Shown: positions 11,861 through 56,644 of the stretch, piece by piece | How the letters are laid out: every line of letters starts with the position of its first letter | Position numbering within the stretch: the first letter of the stretch is position 1 | From: Escherichia coli | Lineage (GTDB): Bacteria; Pseudomonadota; Gammaproteobacteria; Enterobacterales; Enterobacteriaceae | NCBI RefSeq assembly: GCF_024502345.1 | Contig: NZ_JALDNN010000001.1 | Length of the DNA stretch: 64,000 nucleotides | Strand: one strand, 5' to 3' | Notes under the pieces: model-generated | Told to the model about the DNA's origin: nothing | Seen by the model: the letters and a program-made list of their open reading frames with translations, nothing else | Databases searched by the model: none | Program-made: the position numbers and the translations under genes

Positions 11861-11950
11861 GCGATCAGGAAGACCCTCGCGGAGAACCTGAAAGCACGAC
11901 ATTGCTCACATTGCTTCCAGTATTACTTAGCCAGCCGGGTGCTGGCTTTT
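11861..11950 (+). ncRNA. ryhB: RyhB small RNA (Fur-repressed, iron-sparing response)
   Basis: The 90 nt gcgatcaggaagaccctcgcggagaacctgaaagcacgacattgctcacattgcttccagtattacttagccagccgggtgctggctttt match RyhB as I recall it, ending in a Rho-independent terminator (gccagccgggtgctggc + T9). Lies between yhhY and yhhX as in K-12. Confidence 0.9.
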
Positions 11951-12071
11951 TTTTTGATCTTTCGTTCTCAATTTATCCACGGGAGTGCTTGTGTTCGTTA
12001 TGCGCACTCCAGTAGGAACCACGTCCGCTTTGCGCTAAGGTGTAAATAACCACCTTAAAAAGGACGAAATC

Positions 12072-24843: not shown

Positions 24844-26276
24844 TGCAGGTTTTACATGTATGTTCAGAGATGTTCCCGCTGCTTAAAACCGGCGGTCTGG
24901 CTGATGTTATTGGGGCATTACCCGCAGCACAAATCGCAGACGGCGTTGACGCTCGCGTACTGTTGCCTGCATTTCCCGATATTCGCCGTGGCGTGACCGA
25001 TGTGCAGGTAGTATCCCGTCGTGATACCTTCGCCGGACATATCACGCTGTTGTTCGGTCATTACAACGGGGTTGGCATATACCTGATTGACGCGCCGCAT
25101 CTCTATGATCGTCCGGGAAGCCCGTATCACGATACCAACTTATTTGCCTATACCGACAACGTATTGCGTTTTGCGCTGCTGGGGTGGGTTGGGGCAGAAA
25201 TGGCCAGCGGGCTTGACCCATTCTGGCGTCCTGATGTGGTGCATGCGCACGACTGGCATGCAGGCCTTGCGCCTGCGTATCTGGCGGCGCGCGGGCGTCC
25301 GGCGAAGTCGGTGTTTACTGTGCACAACTTGGCCTATCAAGGCATGTTTTATGCACATCACATGAATGACATCCAATTGCCATGGTCATTCTTTAATATT
25401 CATGGGCTGGAATTCAACGGACAAATCTCTTTCCTGAAGGCCGGTCTGTACTATGCCGATCACATTACGGCGGTCAGTCCAACCTACGCTCGCGAGATCA
25501 CCGAACCGCAGTTTGCCTACGGTATGGAAGGTCTGTTGCAACAGCGTCACCGTGAAGGGCGTCTTTCCGGCGTACTGAACGGCGTGGACGAGAAAATCTG
25601 GAGTCCAGAGACGGACTTACTGTTGGCCTCGCGTTACACCCGCGATACGTTGGAAGATAAAGCGGAAAATAAGCGCCAGTTACAAATCGCAATGGGGCTT
25701 AAGGTTGACGATAAAGTGCCGCTTTTTGCAGTGGTGAGCCGTCTGACCAGCCAGAAAGGTCTCGACCTGGTGCTGGAAGCCTTACCGGGTCTTCTGGAGC
25801 AGGGCGGGCAGCTGGCGCTACTCGGCGCGGGTGATCCGGTGCTGCAGGAAGGTTTCCTTGCGGCGGCAGCGGAATACCCCGGCCAGGTGGGCGTTCAGAT
25901 TGGCTATCACGAAGCATTTTCGCATCGCATTATGGGCGGCGCGGACGTCATTCTGGTGCCCAGCCGTTTTGAACCGTGCGGCTTAACGCAACTTTATGGA
26001 TTGAAGTACGGTACGCTGCCGTTAGTGCGGCGCACCGGTGGGCTTGCTGATACGGTTTCTGACTGTTCTCTTGAGAACCTTGCAGATGGCGTCGCCAGTG
26101 GGTTTGTCTTTGAAGATAGTAATGCCTGGTCGCTGTTACGGGCTATTCGACGTGCTTTTGTACTGTGGTCCCGTCCTTCACTGTGGCGGTTTGTGCAACG
26201 TCAGGCTATGGCAATGGATTTTAGCTGGCAGGTCGCGGCGAAGTCGTACCGTGAGCTTTACTATCGCTTGAAATAG
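24843..26276 (+). CDS. glgA: Glycogen synthase
   Basis: 477-aa ORF; its ATG overlaps the glgC TAA by 1 nt (TAATG). Confidence 0.95.
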
Positions 26277-28858: not shown

Positions 28859-30376
28859 ATGGAAAGAATAATGCAAAACAGAAAATGGATTTTGTCCTCG
28901 CTGGTAATGACTTTTTTCGGCATCCCCATACTGACGCAATTTTTGGCGGCGGTTGTTGCTATGCTGGGTGTCGGACTTGCCGGTATTATTGAAGTTTGTA
29001 ATATCCTTATCACGCCAACAAGTTACCTTCTGCTCAACATTTTTATGCTGGCGCTGGGCGCATTAATGCTATTTTTCTCGGGGCGAGTATGGGCAGGCGA
29101 TAGTGCACCAGAAAAAAGAGAAATAGCCGTCTGGCGACAATGTCTTTTTTTAGTACCCGGTTTATTAATCCTGGTTGGCTGGATAATCGCGCTGCATCTG
29201 GCAGATTATCAATTTCACCAGATGGGATCGGGTTGGTTGGCTGATCTTATGCTCCCCTGGCTGGGCGTTTTGTTAGTCTCAGTAGTCGGAGGTGAGTACT
29301 GGTGGATAGTCATTATACCCGTTGGCGCGCATATCAGTTTTTCGCTGGGGTACGGCCGGCCAACCAGACATCCTTTAACCGGTACATCCGGGCTACGTTG
29401 CCGTAATTCCCTCCTGTTTATCCTTCTCATGCTTGGTTTTGTCGCTGGTTATCAGGGTTATTTATATAAACAGCTCAATCCCGGCGTCGGTGTGCGCGAA
29501 AATATTGATACCTGGGCCTGGCGACCCGATAAACTCAATAATCAACTGACACCACTGCGTGGTAAACCGCAAATTCAGTTTACGCAAAACTGGCCGCGAC
29601 TCGATGGTGCTACGGCGGCGTACCCAATTTATGCCTCTGCATTTTATGCTTTAAGCGTTATACCGGAAGATTTTCACACCAGGGAATATCTGGAGAGCTC
29701 TCGTACCCCCGATGCGTATAACAGGATTGTTAAAGGTGATGCTGATAGTATTTTTGTGGCGCAACCTTCCGGTGGGCAGAAAAAACGCGCTGAGGAATCG
29801 GGCGTTACTTTGCTGTACACGCCTTTTGCCCGTGAAGCGTTTGTTTTCATCGTCAATGCGGATAATCCGGTTAATTCCCTGACTGAACAACAGGTGCGTG
29901 ACATCTTCAGTGGTGCAATTACCAACTGGCGTACTGTTGGCGGTAACGATCAGGAGATCCAGACCTGGCAACGCCCGGAAGACTCTGGTAGCCAGACGGT
30001 GATGCAATCCCAGGTCATGAAAAATGTCCGCATGATCTCGCCGCAGGAAACAGAAGTGGCAAGTATGATGGAGGGAATGATTAAAGTCGTTGCCGAATAC
30101 CGTAATACAAACAACTCAATAGGTTACACCTTCCGTTATTACGCAACACAAATGAACGCCGATAAAAATATAAAACTGCTAGCGATTAACGGTATTGCAC
30201 CGACTGCCGAAAACATTCGCAACGGCAAATATCCCTATATCGTCGATGCCTTTATGGTAACGCGGGAAAATACGATGTCAGAGACACAAAAATTGTTGGA
30301 GTGGTTTTTAACGCCGCAGGGACAGAGTTTGGTGGAAGATGTAGGTTATGTCCCGATGTATAAGACGCTACCTTAA
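28859..30376 (+). CDS. Membrane-anchored protein: N-terminal polytopic domain fused to a C-terminal PstS-fold periplasmic-binding-protein-like domain; function unknown
   Basis: 505 aa. Residues 1 to about 190 contain several hydrophobic helices. The C-terminal half carries PstS-family motifs (LTEQQVRDIFSGAITNWRTVGG; RPEDSGSQ; IGYTFRYY; LLAINGIAPTAENIRNGKYPY; VGYVPMY). Alternative start ATG 28871. As I recall, K-12 keeps only a short pseudogene remnant (yzgL) at this position. Confidence 0.8.
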   Translation: MERIMQNRKWILSSLVMTFFGIPILTQFLAAVVAMLGVGLAGIIEVCNILITPTSYLLLNIFMLALGALMLFFSGRVWAGDSAPEKREIAVWRQCLFLVPGLLILVGWIIALHLADYQFHQMGSGWLADLMLPWLGVLLVSVVGGEYWWIVIIPVGAHISFSLGYGRPTRHPLTGTSGLRCRNSLLFILLMLGFVAGYQGYLYKQLNPGVGVRENIDTWAWRPDKLNNQLTPLRGKPQIQFTQNWPRLDGATAAYPIYASAFYALSVIPEDFHTREYLESSRTPDAYNRIVKGDADSIFVAQPSGGQKKRAEESGVTLLYTPFAREAFVFIVNADNPVNSLTEQQVRDIFSGAITNWRTVGGNDQEIQTWQRPEDSGSQTVMQSQVMKNVRMISPQETEVASMMEGMIKVVAEYRNTNNSIGYTFRYYATQMNADKNIKLLAINGIAPTAENIRNGKYPYIVDAFMVTRENTMSETQKLLEWFLTPQGQSLVEDVGYVPMYKTLP

Positions 30377-30460
30377 AGCTGGATAATAAAAATGGAATTA
30401 GTTAATACATTATTTGCAAGCCTTGCCGGTACTGATCCCTTCACAGGCGTGGATATTACG

Positions 30461-30469
30461 ATTGCCAAC
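30461..30469. repeat. 9-bp target-site duplication (left copy) attgccaac
   Basis: Identical to 31527..31535, directly flanking the IS termini. Confidence 0.85.
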
Positions 30470-30487
30470 GGCTTTGTTGAATAAATC
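30470..30487. repeat. IS903 terminal inverted repeat (18 bp)
   Basis: ggctttgttgaataaatc; exact reverse complement is found at 31509..31526. Confidence 0.9.
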
Positions 30488-30525
30488 AGATTTCGGGTAA
30501 GTCTCCCCCGTAGCGGGTTGTGTTT

Positions 30526-31449
30526 TCAGGCAATACGCACGCTTTCAGGCATACCTGCTTTCGTCATTTTGTTCAGCGCTCGTACCAGGGCCATAGCCTC
30601 TGCAACCTGACCATCGTAGTCACGCAGTGTCAGTGAACCCCCGAACAGCTGTTTTACCCGGTACATCGCCGTTTCCGCTATCGAGCGACGGTTGTAATCT
30701 GTTGTCCATTTCCACCGCGCATTACTCCCGGTCATTCGCTGATTAGCCACTGCACGGTTACGGTCTGCATATTCACCGGGCCAGTAACCCGCACCTTTTC
30801 GGGGAGGGATAAGCGCGCTGATTTTCTTACGCCGCAGTTCATCGTGACATAGCCGGGTATCGTAAGCGCCATCGGCGGCGGCTGACCTGATTTTCCGGTG
30901 GGTTTGCCGGATTAACCCGGGGAAGGCCTCTGAGTCCGTAACGTTGTTCAGCGACAGGTCAGCGCAGATGATTTCATGTGTTTTACTGTCAACGGCGAGA
31001 TGCAGCTTACGCCAGATACGGCGGCGTTCCTGGCCATGCTTTTTGACTTTCCACTCGCCTTCACCGAAGACCTTCAGCCCGGTGGAATCAATTACCAGGT
31101 GTGCGATTTCACCCCGGGTGGGCGTTTTGAAACTGACATTAACCGACTTTGCCCGCCTGCTGACACAGCTGTAATCCGGGCAGCGTAGCGGAACGTTCAT
31201 CAGAGAAAAAATGGAATCAATAAAGCCCTGCGCAGCGCGCAGGGTCAGCCTGAATACGCGTTTAATGACCAGCACAGTCGTGATGGCAAGGTCAGAATAG
31301 CGCTGAGGTCTGCCTCGTGAAGAAGGTGTTGCTGACTCATACCAGGCCTGAATAGCTTCATCATCCAGCCAGAAAGTTATGGAGCCACGGTTGATGAGGG
31401 CTTTATTGTAGGTGGGCCAGTTGGTGATTTTGAACTTTTGCTTTGCCAC
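30526..31449 (-). CDS. IS903 transposase (DDE, IS5 family)
   Basis: ORF track 30526..31494 (TTG); probable GTG start at 31449 giving 307 aa beginning MAKQKFKITNWPTYNKALINRGS..., which matches my recollection of the IS903 transposase; also ...LVIDSTGLKVFGEGEWKVKKHG.... Confidence 0.9.
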   Translation of the reverse strand: MAKQKFKITNWPTYNKALINRGSITFWLDDEAIQAWYESATPSSRGRPQRYSDLAITTVLVIKRVFRLTLRAAQGFIDSIFSLMNVPLRCPDYSCVSRRAKSVNVSFKTPTRGEIAHLVIDSTGLKVFGEGEWKVKKHGQERRRIWRKLHLAVDSKTHEIICADLSLNNVTDSEAFPGLIRQTHRKIRSAAADGAYDTRLCHDELRRKKISALIPPRKGAGYWPGEYADRNRAVANQRMTGSNARWKWTTDYNRRSIAETAMYRVKQLFGGSLTLRDYDGQVAEAMALVRALNKMTKAGMPESVRIA

Positions 31450-31508
31450 GGAACGGTCTGCGTTGTCGGGAAGATACGTGATCTGATCCTTCAACTCAGC
31501 AAAAGTTC

Positions 31509-31526
31509 GATTTATTCAACAAAGCC
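31509..31526. repeat. IS903 terminal inverted repeat (18 bp, other end)
   Basis: gatttattcaacaaagcc = reverse complement of 30470..30487. Confidence 0.9.
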
Positions 31527-31535
31527 ATTGCCAAC
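31527..31535. repeat. 9-bp target-site duplication (right copy) attgccaac
   Basis: Identical to 30461..30469. Confidence 0.85.
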
Positions 31536-32170
31536 TGCAAATCGGCATACTGGGATGAAGGCATTGTTCAGCAACTTATTAACCAGGCCCTGGATGAAGG
31601 GGAAAAGTTCGTCGGTGCTGACGGTCTTGAGGGATTGCTTCGATATGATGTCACATTAAATATTGGCTTAACCTCCAGCAAGGTATGGCCGGGATTTTCC
31701 CTCGATACCGCCACCATTAGCCGTCTTTGTGCCTGTGGTGCTGATTTTGGATTTGACCCCTATATCAGTGATGTACCAGATGTTCAATGTGACCTGAACA
31801 CGACAAATGACGTCACCGTACAATTTACGGCGATGCTAAATCCGGATGAGCGGGTGATAATAGCAAAGCGCCCGCTTAAAAAATGTGACTCCTGGATTGA
31901 GGATGTCTATATCTTTCAGGTCTTAAAAGATGCCTGGAAATTTCATAACAATAACAGTTTACGCGGATTTCGCGATAAGCAGGCCGAACTGAAACTCTAC
32001 ACGCGTCATTACTCAGTGGAAAATTGCGCAGAGGAAAGCTGTCGAGACTGCAATAGTTGCATTCGCCCCAGCTTTTCCCTTTCGCGTAGCGCCCTTATTC
32101 GCCTGAACGCGGCGAATGCTCGTTTTGTCTATCAACCGTTTACACGCGATCAGCGGGCGAGGGGGTAACT

Positions 32171-32938
32171 ATGCAACCCAGCCCTGCCATGCAGGCATTA
32201 ATTGAGCAGATTTATCACACCTTTCGTCGTTATCGGGTGCCGCAGAAATTTGTGGTTTGTTGTGAATATTGCCTGAGTCAGCAGGAACAAAAGGCATTAC
32301 GGAGTACATCGTTACGAGCGATCCCGTATTCCTTAATCAATGCCTGGAATAGTAGCCCAGGGCCTGATCCGCAAAATAGCGATGAGGTCCGCTATTTTCT
32401 GCCGCGTTTACTGGAATTTGTTGCACAGGGGCATTTTGACAATATTCACGTAGTTTTTTCTCTGCGCCGTATCAACCTTGCCAACAAAGAAAACTGGCGT
32501 GCGGATGAACGGGCAATTTTACAGCGATTTGCCTGCCAGTATATGACTGATTGGGTATCCGGCGATGAAGCTGTCGAATTACAGTATATGCTGGAAATGT
32601 TTTTCCGTGCCGATATCGCTCTTGCGCCATTGCTGGATGCCATTAATTCAGTTCCCGGCTTTTGGTCGACCGTTTCTCTTGCCTGTTTATTGAACAGATA
32701 TTGTGAGGATTATATCAGAGATAACCAGGACGATATCGATAACGCCATTACCACCCAAATCAATGCCTGGGCTAGAAATAATCATCCTTTACTGAAAGAA
32801 AGAGCGCGGCAAGCGATTGAGAACCCGCTAAAACAGCCCGAACCAATGACAGAATATCATGTCTGGGAAGATGACTGGATAATTGATGAGTGTTTATGCG
32901 CGATGTATGACGCATCATCCGAATCACCAGGAAAATAA
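32171..32938 (+). CDS. Third islet gene, hypothetical protein (255 aa), no recognisable motif
   Basis: ORF starts 2 nt after the stop of the preceding gene; soluble-looking; no family recognised by eye. Confidence 0.7.
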   Translation: MQPSPAMQALIEQIYHTFRRYRVPQKFVVCCEYCLSQQEQKALRSTSLRAIPYSLINAWNSSPGPDPQNSDEVRYFLPRLLEFVAQGHFDNIHVVFSLRRINLANKENWRADERAILQRFACQYMTDWVSGDEAVELQYMLEMFFRADIALAPLLDAINSVPGFWSTVSLACLLNRYCEDYIRDNQDDIDNAITTQINAWARNNHPLLKERARQAIENPLKQPEPMTEYHVWEDDWIIDECLCAMYDASSESPGK

Positions 32939-32940
32939 AA

Positions 32941-33546
32941 ATGATTAAATTCCGGCTTTATATTCCCCCTGTAATTCTCGGTTTTGTTATCGTGCCATTA
33001 TTGGTATGGCCGACGGTTATTGTCTTAGCCGTACTTATATTCACGTTAACTTTTCTGGCAGAAATAATATTCTCCTTTCCGCTCCTGGTTGTACGTATTT
33101 CTCTTCAGGAATTACAACTTGAGTTAATGGTTGAATATGCACTTTTTTTCAGTGTAATGGCTGGCATCGGTTGGCAATTCTCCCGCAGAACGCCTCCTGA
33201 ATTAAAAAACAGACTGCATTGCTGGCTGGTCTTTTCGCCGGTCTATTTCTGGTTAATTCTCTCGAATTTCATTCTTTATATTTCTCCAGAGAAATCAGCG
33301 TTGCTGGAAAATATCCGAAATTTCTTTCTGACGTTTGTCTGGCCTCCCCTGAATTTTTCCCCTTTTTGGCCGCAGCCTTGGACTGATTTTGTCGGCCCGA
33401 TTAGTGCACAGCTTGGTTTTGCATTGGGATATTATTGCCATTGGTGCAGAAAAAATAGAAACCAGAGGAAGAAGTGGGGCGATTGGGTAACGTGCTTAAG
33501 TTTGGCGATTTTAGCTCAGGGGCCGTTATTCAATTATTTACAATGA
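32941..33546 (+). CDS. Fourth islet gene, small multi-pass membrane protein (201 aa), function unknown
   Basis: ORF starts 2 nt after the stop of the third gene; several hydrophobic segments (VILGFVIVPLLVWPTVIVLAVLIFTLTFLAEIIF; WLVFSPVYFWLILSNFILYI); lowest G+C of the islet by eye. Confidence 0.7.
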   Translation: MIKFRLYIPPVILGFVIVPLLVWPTVIVLAVLIFTLTFLAEIIFSFPLLVVRISLQELQLELMVEYALFFSVMAGIGWQFSRRTPPELKNRLHCWLVFSPVYFWLILSNFILYISPEKSALLENIRNFFLTFVWPPLNFSPFWPQPWTDFVGPISAQLGFALGYYCHWCRKNRNQRKKWGDWVTCLSLAILAQGPLFNYLQ

Positions 33547-36510: not shown

Positions 36511-37269
36511 ATGAAACAAACACAACGTCACAACGGTATTATCGAACTGGTTAAACAGCAGGGTTATGTCAGTACTGAAGAGCTGGTAGAGCATTTCTCC
36601 GTCAGCCCGCAGACTATTCGCCGCGACCTCAATGAGCTGGCGGAGCAAAACCTGATCCTGCGTCACCATGGCGGTGCGGCGCTGCCTTCCAGTTCGGTTA
36701 ACACGCCGTGGCACGATCGTAAAGCCACCCAGACCGAAGAAAAAGAGCGTATTGCCCGCAAAGTGGCGGAGCAAATCCCCAACGGCTCGACGCTGTTTAT
36801 CGATATCGGCACCACCCCGGAAGCGGTGGCGCACGCGCTGCTTAATCACAGCAATTTGCGCATTGTCACCAACAATCTCAACGTCGCTAACACGTTGATG
36901 GTAAAAGAAGATTTTCGCATTATTCTCGCCGGTGGCGAATTACGTAGCCGCGATGGTGGGATCATAGGTGAAGCGACGCTCGATTTTATCTCCCAGTTCC
37001 GCCTTGATTTCGGCATTCTGGGGATAAGCGGCATCGATAGCGACGGCTCGCTGCTGGAGTTCGATTACCACGAAGTTCGCACCAAACGCGCCATTATTGA
37101 GAACTCGCGCCACGTTATGCTGGTTGTCGATCACTCGAAATTTGGCCGTAACGCGATGGTCAATATGGGCAGCATCAGCATGGTAGATGCCGTCTACACC
37201 GACGCCCAGCCGCCAGTAAGCGTGATGCAGGTGCTGACGGACCACCATATTCAACTGGAGCTGTGCTGA
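36511..37269 (+). CDS. glpR: glp regulon repressor (DeoR family)
   Basis: 252-aa ORF; DeoR-type HTH (RHNGIIELVKQQGYVSTEELVEHF); its 3' end overlaps the rtcR 3' end by 19 bp (convergent). Confidence 0.95.
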   Translation: MKQTQRHNGIIELVKQQGYVSTEELVEHFSVSPQTIRRDLNELAEQNLILRHHGGAALPSSSVNTPWHDRKATQTEEKERIARKVAEQIPNGSTLFIDIGTTPEAVAHALLNHSNLRIVTNNLNVANTLMVKEDFRIILAGGELRSRDGGIIGEATLDFISQFRLDFGILGISGIDSDGSLLEFDYHEVRTKRAIIENSRHVMLVVDHSKFGRNAMVNMGSISMVDAVYTDAQPPVSVMQVLTDHHIQLELC

Positions 37270-38849
37270 TCCTGCAATGCTTCCCAGGTCAGACCAAAAC
37301 GCGCCAGGTATTTGCGTAGCCGATCCGCGTCATTGACGCTGGCTTTGCCCTGGCGCGAAACATCAAAAAGCTGTCGTCCGGCAGCAGAAAGCGACTTTGC
37401 CTGGCGGCAGATAGCGATAACGTGTTCCAGTTGCATACGGTCGAAGAGATCGATGTTTTCTGCCTCTGCGCCCAGCAACGCCGTAAGCGCGGAGGGGCGG
37501 CTCTCCTGCCAGTTAAAGCGCAGACGGTTTATCTCATCTTCAACCACGTCCAGAGTAATGCGTCCGCTAGAGGCAAAGGTTGCCATTCGCGTGACGCTGG
37601 CAGAAAGCTCGCGAAAGTTACCGCGCCATGTTGCCTGGGGAGATGTCGCAAAGGCCAGCCAGGCGCGCCGCGCTTCGGTGTTAAAACGCACGCTGTCGCC
37701 GGTGAGTGAAGCGTGGCGCTCCACTTCATAATCCAGGTTAGGTTCAATATCTTCCTGGCGCTGGCGTAGCCCCGGCAGGGTGAAGGTCCAGAGATTGATC
37801 CGCGCGTACAGGTCTTCGCGAAATTTTCCTTCGGCAACCAGCTGGCGCAAATCACGCACCGTTCCGGCGATAAGCTGAAAATCACTGCTCACCTGGCGAT
37901 CGCTGCCAAACGGATAAAAGGTTTTTTCTTCAATGGCTTTAAGCAGCATTGCCTGTTCGTCTGCGCCCAGTTCGCCAATCTCATCAAGAAACAACATTCC
38001 ACCGTTGGCGCTACGTAATAATCCTTCACGGGATTCCCGCGCCCCGGTAAACGCGCCTTTTACATGACCAAACAGCGTCGACATGGCGGTATCGCCGCGC
38101 AGGGTTGCGCAGTTCACTTCCACAAACGCGCCGCTAAACTGATGCCGCGCCTGTTTTAATTCAAATATACGTCGCGCCAGAAATGACTTGCCCGCACCGG
38201 TTGGGCCGTTTAGCAGGATCGGTGCGCGGGATTTAATCGCCACTTTTTCAATCTGCTCAATCATGCGGTTGAAGTGCGGGTTACGCGTGGCAATGCCGGA
38301 CTTAAGAAAATCAAGCGTTTGCTGGCGTTCCTCGGCAAAGCGGCTGGCGATGGCGTTATAACGGCTTAAATCGAGATCGATAATCGTCACTTCACCTGCG
38401 CCGCGCGGCTGTTCTTTTTTGCGCGGAGGTGAAGATTGTATCAACCGGGCGGGCAGGTAACGCGCTTCCGCCAGCAGAAACCAGCAAATCTGCGCGACGT
38501 GGGTGCCGGTGGTGATGTGAATTAAATAGTCTTCTTTTTCTGGCTGAAACTCGTAACCACGGGCGAAATCATGCAGGCAGGCGTAAACCTCTTCGAAATC
38601 CCACGGGTTATGCAGTTCAATCTCAACGCTCACCACTTCTGTTTCTGGCGAAACGCTGGCGATATCGCGTTTAAGCGTTTCAAATAGCGAGCGCGAGCGG
38701 GCGTCATGCAATAATTCCAGTCGATCGATGACCAACGATTCTTGCTGGCATAAACAGAGTGTCGGACGCCATTTCGACCAGCGCTGACTGCCGCGCCCGG
38801 CATAATCCAGCACCGTTCCGACAAAGCCAAAAGCCACTGTTTTACGCAT
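37251..38849 (-). CDS. rtcR: Sigma54-dependent transcriptional activator of rtcBA
   Basis: 532-aa ORF; AAA+ sigma54-interaction motifs (GPTGAGKS; GAFTGA); divergent from rtcBA. Confidence 0.9.
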
Positions 38850-38983
38850 CTTAGATATCCTTATAAAAGACGATATTTCATTATCGGTGAATTGGTTTTG
38901 TGGAAAATCTCCGTTTACGGACGTAAAGATTTAACCTATTTAAAAACAATGAATTAAAAAATTAATCTGCTTATTTAATTTTC

Positions 38984-38999
38984 TGGCACGACGGTTGCA
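38984..38999 (+). promoter_or_regulatory. Sigma54 (-24/-12) promoter for rtcBA
   Basis: tggcacgacggttgca = TGGCAC-N5-TTGCA consensus, about 40 bp upstream of the rtcB ATG. Confidence 0.65.
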
Positions 39000-39037
39000 A
39001 TTATCACGACAGCAAACAACGAAAAGAGAAAAACAAA

Positions 39038-40264
39038 ATGAATTACGAATTACTGACCACTGAAAATGCCCCGGTAAAAATGTGGACCAAAGGCGTGCCG
39101 GTAGAAGCCGATGCGCGTCAGCAACTTATTAATACGGCGAAGATGCCGTTTATTTTCAAACATATTGCGGTAATGCCTGATGTACACCTGGGTAAAGGTT
39201 CCACCATTGGTAGCGTGATCCCGACCAAAGGGGCGATTATTCCGGCGGCGGTGGGCGTGGATATTGGCTGTGGAATGAACGCGCTGCGTACCGCGTTAAC
39301 GGCGGCAGACCTGCCTGAAAACCTGGCAGAGCTGCGTCAGGCGATTGAAACTGCGGTGCCGCACGGACGTACCACTGGCCGTTGTAAACGTGATAAAGGC
39401 GCATGGGAAAACCCGCCTGTTAACGTCGATGCGAAATGGGCTGAGCTTGAAGCCGATTATCAGTGGTTAACGCAAAAATATCCGCGTTTCCTTAACACTA
39501 ACAACTATAAACACCTGGGAACGCTGGGAACGGGTAACCACTTTATTGAAATCTGCCTTGATGAGTCGGACCAGGTGTGGATTATGCTGCACTCCGGTTC
39601 ACGCGGAATTGGTAACGCCATCGGGACTTACTTTATCGATTTGGCACAAAAAGAGATGCAGGACCAGCTTGAAACGTTGCCATCGCGCGACCTGGCGTAC
39701 TTTATGGAAGGTACGGAATACTTTGATGATTACCTAAGAGCCGTGGCCTGGGCGCAGCTTTTCGCCAGCCTTAACCGCGATGCGATGATGGAAAACGTGG
39801 TAACGGCGTTGCAGAGCATTACGCAGAAAACGGTCAGACAGCCACAAACGCTGGCGATGGAAGAGATCAACTGTCACCACAACTATGTGCAAAAAGAACA
39901 GCACTTTGGTGAAGAGATCTACGTGACGCGTAAAGGCGCGGTGTCTGCGCGTGCTGGTCAATATGGAATTATTCCCGGTTCGATGGGAGCAAAAAGCTTT
40001 ATCGTCCGTGGGCTGGGAAATGAAGAGTCGTTCTGTTCGTGCAGCCACGGTGCCGGGCGGGTAATGAGCCGTACTAAAGCGAAAAAACTGTTCAGCGTGG
40101 AAGATCAAATTCGTGCTACCGCGCATGTGGAATGCCGTAAAGATGCCGAAGTGATCGACGAAATCCCGATGGCGTATAAAGATATTGATGCGGTGATGGC
40201 GGCACAAAGCGATCTGGTGGAAGTTATCTACACCCTGCGTCAGGTGGTGTGCGTAAAAGGATAA
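39038..40264 (+). CDS. rtcB: RNA-splicing ligase RtcB
   Basis: 408-aa ORF recalled as RtcB; divergent from rtcR. Confidence 0.95.
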   Translation: MNYELLTTENAPVKMWTKGVPVEADARQQLINTAKMPFIFKHIAVMPDVHLGKGSTIGSVIPTKGAIIPAAVGVDIGCGMNALRTALTAADLPENLAELRQAIETAVPHGRTTGRCKRDKGAWENPPVNVDAKWAELEADYQWLTQKYPRFLNTNNYKHLGTLGTGNHFIEICLDESDQVWIMLHSGSRGIGNAIGTYFIDLAQKEMQDQLETLPSRDLAYFMEGTEYFDDYLRAVAWAQLFASLNRDAMMENVVTALQSITQKTVRQPQTLAMEEINCHHNYVQKEQHFGEEIYVTRKGAVSARAGQYGIIPGSMGAKSFIVRGLGNEESFCSCSHGAGRVMSRTKAKKLFSVEDQIRATAHVECRKDAEVIDEIPMAYKDIDAVMAAQSDLVEVIYTLRQVVCVKG

Positions 40265-41284
<1,020 letters not shown>

Positions 41285-54323: not shown

Positions 54324-56644
54324 TAATGGCAATCACCGGTGGTGCTGGCTGCGCAGCAACTACTTACCGACTTGCGGGTTGCCAGCAGTTCGATATCCAC
54401 CCGGCTACGCGCGCGGCGCAGCAGACCGATAACCACGATGTTAAACAGGATAACCGCCAGAATGCACACCAGGCTGTAAGTTGGGTGCTGACTGTAGCTG
54501 GCGACCTGATAGAACAATGTTGCCAGTGAGTAAGCGATATTCAGCCCCCACAGGATGGAGAAGCCCATCCAGCCACGGCTTGATTCACGGGCGATGGCTC
54601 CCATCACCGAGATGCACGGTACATACAGCAGGACGAAAATCAGGTAGCTGTATGCGGCAGCTGCGCTACCGAATTTCTGATCCATCACGCCCATCGCCCC
54701 GGTACCCATTTCGCCGTCGCCTTTGCTAGCTTCAATGGGGTTCATCAGTACGCTAAGGCTGAAGGTGTCTTTCAGGCTCTGCCAGGTTTCATCTACCGCG
54801 CTGAACAACTCTTCACCGAGGTTAAATTCCGCCGGATTGAACTCTTCGTCCTGAATATTTTCTGCGGTGTAGAGGGTGTTGAGCGTACCCACCACCACTT
54901 CTTTCGCCATTGCACCCGTAAACAGGCCAACTGTTGCCTGCCAGTTATCTTCATGCACGCCAATCGGCTTGAAGACCGGGGTGATCACCCGGCTGACGGA
55001 AGCCAGCGCCGAGTCGTTGATGTTATCGACGATTTTCCCGCTCAACGAGAAGCTGTTGAAAGCGCTCAGGAAAATGCTGACGATGATAATCACTTTACCA
55101 GCACGCAGAACGAAGCCTTTCAGACGCTGCCAGGTCTGGATAATCAGGCTTTTAACGTGTGGTACATGGTAGACCGGCAGCTCCATGACAAACGGCGTCG
55201 CTTCACCGCGCATGATGGTGTACTTGAGCATCAGGCCAGTCAGCACCGCCATCACGATACCCAGCATATACAGCGAGAAGACCGCCAGCGCACCGTTCTG
55301 CCCGAAGAAGGCAGCCGCGAATACTGCGAAGATAGCCAGACGCGCGCCGCAGGACATAAACGGTGCCATCATGATGGTCATCAGACGTTCACGCGGTGCA
55401 TCAAGCGTACGTGCACCCATTACCGACGGTACGTTACAACCGAAACCGACGATCAGCGGCACAAAGGATTTCCCCGGCAAGCCCAGCGCCTGCATCAGGC
55501 GGTCCATCACAAACGCTGCACGCGCCATATAGCCGGAGTCCTCAAGGAAGGAGAGGAACAGGTACATCATGCCGATCTGCGGCACCAGTGGCAGCACGGT
55601 GTTAATACCGCCACCCAGGCCCTGGGCGAGGAAGATAGTCAGCCAGTCCGGGAAGTGGAGCGTGTAGCCAATCCATTGAATACCATGCACAAATAGCGCC
55701 ACGGAGCCGACGTCAAACAGCGGCTGTAACGCCCCGCCGATGTTGATAGCCAGCAGGAACATCAGGTACATCACAAAGAGGAAAATCGGCAGACCGAGGA
55801 AACGGTTGAGCACGATTTTATCTACCGCAGTGGTGAAACGGCTGGGTTCTGCCGTCAGGGTGTTGCTTACCACATCACAGATGGCCGCAATGCACTGGTA
55901 ACGCGCATCGGCAATGTGCAGCGCCGGATCGTCCATCTCATTACGCAGACGGGCGAGGGCGGCATCAAGATGCTGCGACGCTTCACCGGCGTAGGCGCGG
56001 CTGTAGATATCGCCTTCCAGCATTTGCAGGCCCAGCCAGCGACGTTGTTTCAGCGGGATGTCGGAAGGCATCACTTTTGCCAGTGAATCTGCTTCGTTGA
56101 GCAGCGGCTGTGCGTAATGCACCAGTTCCACATTCTCGTTAGCTTTATAGCGATCAATCGCCAGCTTGAGCGCTTCAATACCGCGACCACGGGTTGAAAC
56201 CAGCGGGATCACCGGACAGCCAAGACGCGCCGACAGAGCATCAATTTCAATACGAATATTTTGCTTCTCGGCAATGTCGAGCATGTTCAGTGCCACGATG
56301 CAGGGAATGCCGAGTTCCAGCAGTTGTAGCGTCAGGTACAGGTTACGCTCAAGGTTAGACGCATCCACCACGTTAATCAGCAGGTCGGCGTCGCCACTCA
56401 AAATGTAGTGACAGGCGATTTGCTCATCGAGCGAGGTCTGCGATGAGATGGTGGTCAGAGAATAGGTGCCGGGCAGGTCCACCAGCGTGACCTGATGATC
56501 GGTGGTGGAGAATTGCCCTTCTTTACGTTCGACGGTAACGCCAGCCCAGTTACCTACACGCTGACGTGCGCCAGTGAGCTGGTTAAATAAGGTTGTCTTG
56601 CCAGAATTTGGATTACCAATTAAGCCAATGGTTAATTTTTTCAT
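54323..56644 (-). CDS. feoB: Ferrous iron transporter B (GTPase + permease)
   Basis: ORF track 54323..56656; start set at ATG 56644 ([21 protein letters not shown]...), 773 aa; N-terminal G-domain P-loop. Confidence 0.95.

Follow-up and report, generated by a model that had tools for sequence, protein, structure and literature searches.

The 64-kb stretch of Escherichia coli DNA analyzed here (the window) carries the rtc locus, in which the gene for a sigma-54 activator stands back to back with a two-gene RNA-repair operon. The activator gene, rtcR (37251..38849, minus strand), encodes a protein of 532 aa that scores 850 bits against the model NF038308, for which the cutoff is 650. Residues 2-185 of RtcR match the RtcR/CARF-like domain PF06956 and residues 187-354 the Sigma54_activat domain PF00158 (E = 5.5e-51). 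The translation holds GAFTGA, the Walker A motif GPTGAGKS, and LFLDEIGE, and a C-terminal region follows the AAA+ domain. On the other side of the intergenic gap, rtcB (39038..40264, plus strand) is the operon's first gene and encodes a 408-aa RNA 3'-phosphate / 2',3'-cyclic phosphate ligase (PF01139, E = 7e-133). The second gene, rtcA (40268..41284, plus strand), encodes the 338/339-aa RNA 3'-terminal phosphate cyclase (NF003247, 783 bits); residues 2-339 of the 339-aa open reading frame align to positions 1-338 of the profile. Only 3 nt separate the rtcB stop codon from the rtcA start. The two genes are co-oriented and divergent from rtcR, as a sequence-only reading of this DNA had described.

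The RefSeq annotation of near-identical E. coli genomes agrees on the identity of these genes, and on the start of rtcA. Further, the order glpD-glpEG-glpR-rtcR / rtcB-rtcA / malT is that of the E. coli chromosome, and the genes for GlpR and MalT flank the rtc locus, one on each side. The window has an intact glpR (252 aa; 36511..37269, plus strand), whereas the MG1655 annotation makes this gene a pseudogene. The convergent glpR and rtcR genes overlap at their 3' ends by 19 nt.

The rtcR-rtcB intergenic gap spans 188 nt. Inside it lies a sigma-54 promoter core of the form TGGCAC-N5-TTGCA (TGGCACGACGGTTGCA; 38984..38999, plus strand), which can be read directly as TGGCAC at 38984-38989, a 5-nt spacer at 38990-38994, and TTGCA at 38995-38999 (letters: tTGGCACgacggTTGCAa; a longer read of the surrounding window is ttttcTGGCACgacggTTGCAattatcacgACagc). 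The -24 GG (38985-38986) and the -12 GC (38997-38998) are exactly 10 nt apart, in agreement with the sigma-54 pattern TGGCAC-N5-TTGCW. The core faces rtcB, whose ATG (39038) lies 38 nt past the final base of TTGCA (38999), and the earlier estimate of about 40 bp between motif and gene is thus borne out. An abstract by Genschik et al. from 1998 reportedly places a -12 TTGCA and a -24 TGGCA upstream of a mapped start of the rtcA/rtcB mRNA.

The 17-mer defined by ChIP-seq, CTGGCACGACGGTTGCA (38983..38999, plus strand), agrees in every letter with OS35, a sigma-54 peak of MG1655 that lies upstream of rtcB, points toward it, and has a fold-above-threshold (FAT) value of 17 (Bonocora et al. 2015, PMC4591121). 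In that study OS35 bears the flag "C", which denotes a promoter experimentally confirmed in EcoCyc, and the occupancy by sigma-54 was seen in mid-log cells in M9 minimal medium (PMC4591121). A reporter gains RtcR-dependent activity from the 175 nt that precede the rtcB ATG, equivalent to 38863..39037 of the window (PMC5175333), and work by the same group shows that RtcR stripped of its CARF domain activates constitutively, including in transcription in vitro (Kotta-Loizou et al. 2022, PMC9650030). ChIP-chip detects sigma-54 at the Salmonella homologue of the element, TGGCACGCTGGTTGCAAT, and a delta-rpoN strain no longer shows activity of this promoter (PMC3844500). Sigma-54 occupancy, RtcR dependence, and sigma-54 dependence are taken here from published work. 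Given the identity to OS35, the position and neighboring genes of the site, and the conservation described below, we have hardly any doubt that the E. coli rtcBA RNA-repair operon has its sigma-54 (RpoN) promoter here, with 38984..38999 as the -24/-12 element, as the sequence-only reading had proposed. This feature is the already characterized rtcBA promoter, known since 1998; it is ordinary textbook biology, and its confirmation contributes nothing new.

The statistics of the motif deserve some care. The exact match to TGGCAC-N5-TTGCA is the single one on both strands of the 64-kb window (shuffled sequences have 0.10 per window), and scaling from the shuffles gives an expectation of about 1.5e-4 exact matches for one strand of the 188-nt gap. 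We also scored the window with a weight matrix built from 132 published sigma-54 ChIP-seq motifs, applied in leave-one-out fashion and with the three motifs expected within the window excluded. A scan of this kind for RpoN sites had been suggested earlier. In it the rtcBA site, at 15.5 bits, is the window's best match and outscores 74% of the training sites. Taken alone, however, that score has no significance over 64 kb: among 100 simulated sequences of this length, 54 hold a value of at least 15.5 bits. We therefore rejected the matrix as stand-alone proof of a promoter, and it is the location, orientation, neighbors, and conservation of the site that make the case. A match on the reverse strand at 38996..39012 (12.5 bits) was dismissed as lacking the GG; it appears because TTGCAA is its own reverse complement.

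That comparable scores arise by chance in about half of random 64-kb sequences could be taken to mean that the motif is a functionless coincidence in A/T-rich intergenic DNA. Such an explanation would have to accommodate the expectation of about 1.5e-4 for an exact consensus in this gap and orientation, the identity of the motif to the experimentally bound OS35, and its invariance amid diverging flanks, together with its conservation across phyla. We consider a chance match so improbable as to be negligible; in effect, it is refuted by the published ChIP-seq and by conservation.

Two further sigma-54 sites known from published ChIP-seq fall within the window, and both were recovered by the matrix even though they had been excluded from its training. 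One, AAGGCATGTTTTATGCA (25339..25355, plus strand), is internal to glgA and strongly bound (IS43, FAT 49); the other, GTGGCACTGAACATGCT (56280..56296, minus strand), is internal to feoB and weak (IS42, FAT 1). The glgA and rtcB sites are 13644 nt apart in the window versus 9404 nt in MG1655. Between them, from glgP to glpD (28859..33546), lie two genes for PstS-family binding proteins and a hypothetical gene, which, judging by this spacing, are absent from K-12 MG1655. The second PstS-family gene is interrupted by an IS903B-like (IS5-family) insertion at about 30460..31535, with its transposase open reading frame at 30526..31494 (minus strand). Among the complete E. coli genomes of our collection, none covers the junction of this element to 80% or more, and so the insertion looks strain-specific. 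Elsewhere, the small RNA RyhB (Rfam RF00057, 83 bits; 11890..11954, plus strand) is the sole Rfam family that reaches its gathering score in the window.

The promoter is strongly conserved within the species. A 601-nt probe finds matches in 4857 of 5426 complete E. coli genomes, all of them annotated with rtcR on one side and rtcB on the other; identity is 95-99% in most, and 99.8% at best. With a 47-nt probe centered on the promoter, an exact word of at least 28 nt is present in at least 4504 of the 5426. Relative to MG1655, the intergenic region of the window has 11 substitutions, none of which falls in the -24/-12 element, the AC at -1/+1, or the dyad discussed below. When nine enterobacterial intergenic sequences are aligned, the -24/-12 element is invariant, and its flanks diverge.

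To look further afield, we assembled 26 loci with a full-length relative of RtcR, drawn from a one-genome-per-species collection and, via RtcR homologues, from public assemblies. They span Escherichia, Salmonella, Klebsiella, Enterobacter, Phytobacter, Pseudomonas, Ralstonia, and Caballeronia, and also Iodobacter, Accumulibacter, Desulfobulbus, Desulfovibrio, a Calditrichia genome, and others. In 25 of the 26, the best sigma-54 match lies on the strand opposite to rtcR, 126-196 nt from the rtcR start (133 nt in E. coli). The opposite-strand scores in those 25 loci are 11.2-19.0 bits, and the best score on the rtcR strand is lower in each (1.9-10.8 bits). The one exception (L017), whose RtcR is 43% identical, has no convincing -24/-12 element. 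Thus, the view that this is a classic RNA-repair operon arrangement holds: the divergent rtcR, the -24/-12 element, and rtcB(A) recur in 25 of 26 RtcR loci. Most loci have rtcB and/or rtcA downstream, and some have Ro60 (rsr) or other genes first; a published survey of rtcR-rtcBA clusters agrees (PMC3854526).

Several of these loci depart from the E. coli gene content. Among loci L030, L032, and L010-L012, the first genes after the promoter encode Band_7 and zf_Tbcl proteins in Chitinolyticbacter; downstream of the RtcR-controlled promoter, Ralstonia has a zf_Tbcl protein followed by a short RtcB-family open reading frame of 173 aa, and Pseudomonas has first an open reading frame of about 390-460 aa. 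The differing first genes in some beta- and gamma-proteobacteria indicate that the content of the operon varies and that the promoter architecture is kept. In Escherichia albertii NBRC 107761 (L016), rtcB is split into open reading frames of 262 and 143 aa and is likely a pseudogene, with the promoter and rtcA intact. Loss of the locus also occurs. Of the 5426 complete E. coli genomes, 589 (about 10%) match less than 80% of a 4.8-kb probe and lack most of the rtc locus. In NZ_CM173840.1 (L024), 3' remnants of rtcR (399 nt) and rtcA (420 nt) adjoin one another, and each carries a pseudogene annotation; these abutting remnants point to a deletion of about 3.25 kb, corresponding approximately to 37650..40870 of the window, in which rtcR and rtcA lost their 5' portions and the promoter and rtcB disappeared.

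Binding by sigma-54 need not be productive, and it is conceivable that the polymerase occupies this site idly and that rtcBA is expressed from another promoter. The ChIP-seq study itself allows for non-productive occupancy at many E. coli sites (PMC4591121). In addition, the native promoter has been described as "very weak in vitro" (PMC9650030), and Kotta-Loizou et al. remarked that some stimuli increase rtcBA expression without RtcR, possibly via alternative promoters (PMC9650030). Yet the site is intergenic, faces rtcB from 28 nt away as measured from the predicted transcription start, and sits beside the gene for a dedicated activator. The activity of the 175-nt fragment is RtcR-dependent (PMC5175333), the Salmonella homologue is rpoN-dependent (PMC3844500), and 25 of the 26 loci keep a sigma-54 site at a fixed spacing. 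Further, a scan for sigma-70-like promoters over 38700..39200 found no matches; this result gives no backing to another promoter for rtcB, nor to a clear one for rtcR. We regard idle occupancy of the site as very improbable and take the -24/-12 element to be the working promoter of rtcBA.

By a published rule, initiation is predicted 19 nt past the center of the motif, which leaves 28 nt to rtcB (PMC4591121); in the window, this points to the C at 39010, with the A at 39009 as position -1 (39009..39010, plus strand). A later study assayed native PrtcBA in vitro with an ApC primer at -1/+1 and an ATP label (PMC9650030). The letters at 39009-39011 are A-C-A, which fits that primer, and MG1655 has no other AC in that stretch. 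From the rule and the primer together, we infer a start at about 39010, which by calculation corresponds to position 3558107 of MG1655 (NC_000913.3). The sequence-only reading had anticipated a start some 12 nt downstream of TTGCA and agrees as far as it can be checked, the predicted start being 11 nt past the A of that element. The resulting rtcB leader (39010..39037, plus strand) would be 28 nt long and A-rich; it holds a weak Shine-Dalgarno-like AAGAGA at 39024-39029 and is unstructured, with a predicted folding energy of 0 kcal/mol.

Upstream of the core, the alignment of the nine enterobacterial intergenic regions resolves into a few conserved blocks, chiefly the ribosome-binding-site region of rtcR, a dyad, an A/T-rich tract, the -24/-12 element, and the ribosome-binding-site region of rtcB. 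There is no cross-genus conservation between the dyad and the A/T-rich tract in this alignment. Within that interval, the block AAATCTCCGTTTACGGAC (38908..38925), which has the palindrome CCGT-TT-ACGG, is kept in all six Escherichia sequences; other enterobacteria differ at the equivalent position, several of them having a TGCAG/GCGCAG-like core and then a run of T. A repeat finder applied to the intergenic region returned only A/T-rich inverted repeats of low identity and missed the 5+5 dyad.

The A/T-rich stretch (38944..38964, plus strand) contains two overlapping IHF-like sites, AAACAATGAATTA at 38944-38956 and AATTAAAAAATTA at 38952-38964, both on the plus strand and each one mismatch from the consensus WATCAANNNNTTR. 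The exact consensus, in the same orientation and 29-43 nt upstream of the 17-mer, is present in 10 of 22 non-redundant lineages; shuffled sequences average 0.38 lineages and never exceed 3. An "rtc IHF binding site" has been mentioned, without coordinates (PMC9650030). The stretch 38944..38964 is probably a DNA-bending site between enhancer and promoter, and either of its two IHF-like sites may be the one in use.

The other conserved block is the dyad CGATATTTCATTATCG (38871..38886, either strand), 16 bp of the form CGATA-N6-TATCG, which is a candidate for the RtcR enhancer (upstream activating sequence, UAS), an operator of rtcR, or both. Its center lies at about -131 from the predicted start, and the dyad is 21 nt from the rtcR ATG. 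It forms an invariant block of the enterobacterial alignment, with both half-sites conserved, and it falls within the 175-nt fragment that suffices for RtcR-dependent reporter activity. The shorter form CGAT-N8-ATCG is found in 9 of 22 lineages (eight enterobacterial plus Ralstonia; the mean for shuffles is 0.07), a count to be read with the understanding that the test was post hoc and that the enterobacterial lineages are mutually dependent. Wherever found, this form keeps a distance of 21-30 nt to the rtcR start and precedes the -24/-12 element by 110-128 nt. In Ralstonia it reads CGATC-N6-GATCG, so that the changes to the half-sites are symmetric. One additional enterobacterial locus and one Pseudomonas locus carry the dyad with one mismatch.

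In a review from 2016, the entry for the RtcR enhancer reads "NK", for not known (PMC4987338), and we found neither an enhancer sequence for RtcR nor IHF coordinates in PMC9650030 (text and supplements), PMC7790460, PMC9879122, or the literature that could be searched. On the strength of its symmetry, position, and conservation, the dyad at 38871..38886 may be this hitherto undefined enhancer, a proposal to which we would give slightly less than an even chance. The dyad overlaps a -10-like hexamer, GATAAT, on the rtcR strand, as well as the rtcR leader, and a dual role is therefore conceivable: bound RtcR could both activate rtcBA and repress rtcR. Among other activators of this class, such self-repression occurs where the enhancer overlaps the promoter of the activator gene itself. 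Many such activators have two or more sites, whereas only a single dyad is evident upstream of rtcBA.

An opposing interpretation, that the dyad instead belongs to a sigma-70 promoter of rtcR, binds some other regulator, or forms a hairpin in the leader RNA of rtcR, has appreciable weight, and we would place it somewhat short of even. The dyad's proximity to the rtcR ATG and the GATAAT on the rtcR strand fit a promoter role, and rtcR is stated in the literature to own a promoter of the sigma-70 type. Further, the occurrences of the dyad are mostly among related enterobacteria, and when every 4-mer dyad in 14 upstream regions was enumerated without bias, the maximum count had no overall significance (46 of 300 shuffles), with GATA-N6-TATC tied for the top count at five loci. 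On the other hand, conservation extends to both half-sites, beyond the -10-like half alone, and the symmetric change in Ralstonia also speaks for the dyad as a unit. The hairpin was rejected, as the predicted RNA folds no better than shuffled sequences (z = 0.43). The distance of about -131 suits an enhancer, as does the location within the active reporter fragment, and roles as an enhancer and in the rtcR promoter are compatible with one another. We retain the dyad as a candidate RtcR site.

These elements can be assembled into an account that follows the standard mechanism of this promoter class, which is the best supported. Sigma-54 polymerase would bind the GG (38985-6) and the GC (38997-8) and form a closed complex that is unable to start by itself. 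RtcR, supplied by the divergent gene, would be kept inactive by its N-terminal CARF-like domain until a signal of RNA damage appears; as candidates for it, the literature puts forward tRNA fragments that carry a terminal 2',3'-cyclic phosphate, with RtcA and RtcB participating. The activated protein would then assemble on an enhancer about 110-130 bp upstream, most likely the dyad at 38871..38886, whose part as the RtcR site is suggested by the sequence comparisons above. A bend in the A/T-rich, IHF-like stretch (38944..38964) would carry RtcR to the polymerase, and ATP hydrolysis by RtcR, acting through the GAFTGA loop, would open the promoter. Transcription from about 39010 would yield a single rtcB-rtcA mRNA whose leader is 28 nt long.

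The Rtc RNA-repair response of bacteria is controlled at this promoter, and the response has been connected with tRNA damage and with tolerance of antibiotics that target the ribosome. The added value of our analysis is modest: it consists of the fixed architecture of dyad, IHF position, and -24/-12 element across the proteobacteria and beyond, and of a candidate DNA site for RtcR. The conserved dyad, as a candidate enhancer or operator, is the only lead that goes beyond the searchable literature. If it were validated, prediction of the RtcR regulon and a cleaner design of reporters would become possible.

The closest known system is PrtcBA of E. coli K-12 MG1655, which has the same 17-mer, flanking genes, gene order, and spacing as the window, which carries a strain-level allele. 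The Prsr promoter of Salmonella Typhimurium, which drives an rsr-yrlBA-rtcBA operon, shares the divergent rtcR, the -24/-12 element, the position of the dyad, and the A/T-rich IHF region. The -24/-12 element of Salmonella LT2 is TGGCACGCTGGTTGCA, and in both systems it lies 132-133 nt from the rtcR start. They differ in that rsr (Ro60) is the first gene downstream in Salmonella LT2 and several other enterobacteria, whereas rtcB has this place in E. coli, and in that the IHF consensus is exact in Salmonella at the position where each E. coli site has one mismatch. Another Salmonella enterica locus (L025) has the CGAT-N8-ATCG dyad and, directly downstream, rtcB.

A more distant parallel is the pspA promoter of E. 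coli, where the activator, PspF, is encoded divergently, the enhancer lies between the two genes and near the start of the activator gene, and an IHF site and a -24/-12 element complete the arrangement. Its general layout is like the one proposed for rtcBA, and the pspA site is present among the published sigma-54 ChIP-seq sites. The activator, the signal, and the enhancer sequence are, however, all different in the two systems. PspF lacks an N-terminal regulatory domain and is under the control of PspA; RtcR, unlike PspF, has a CARF-like sensor domain.
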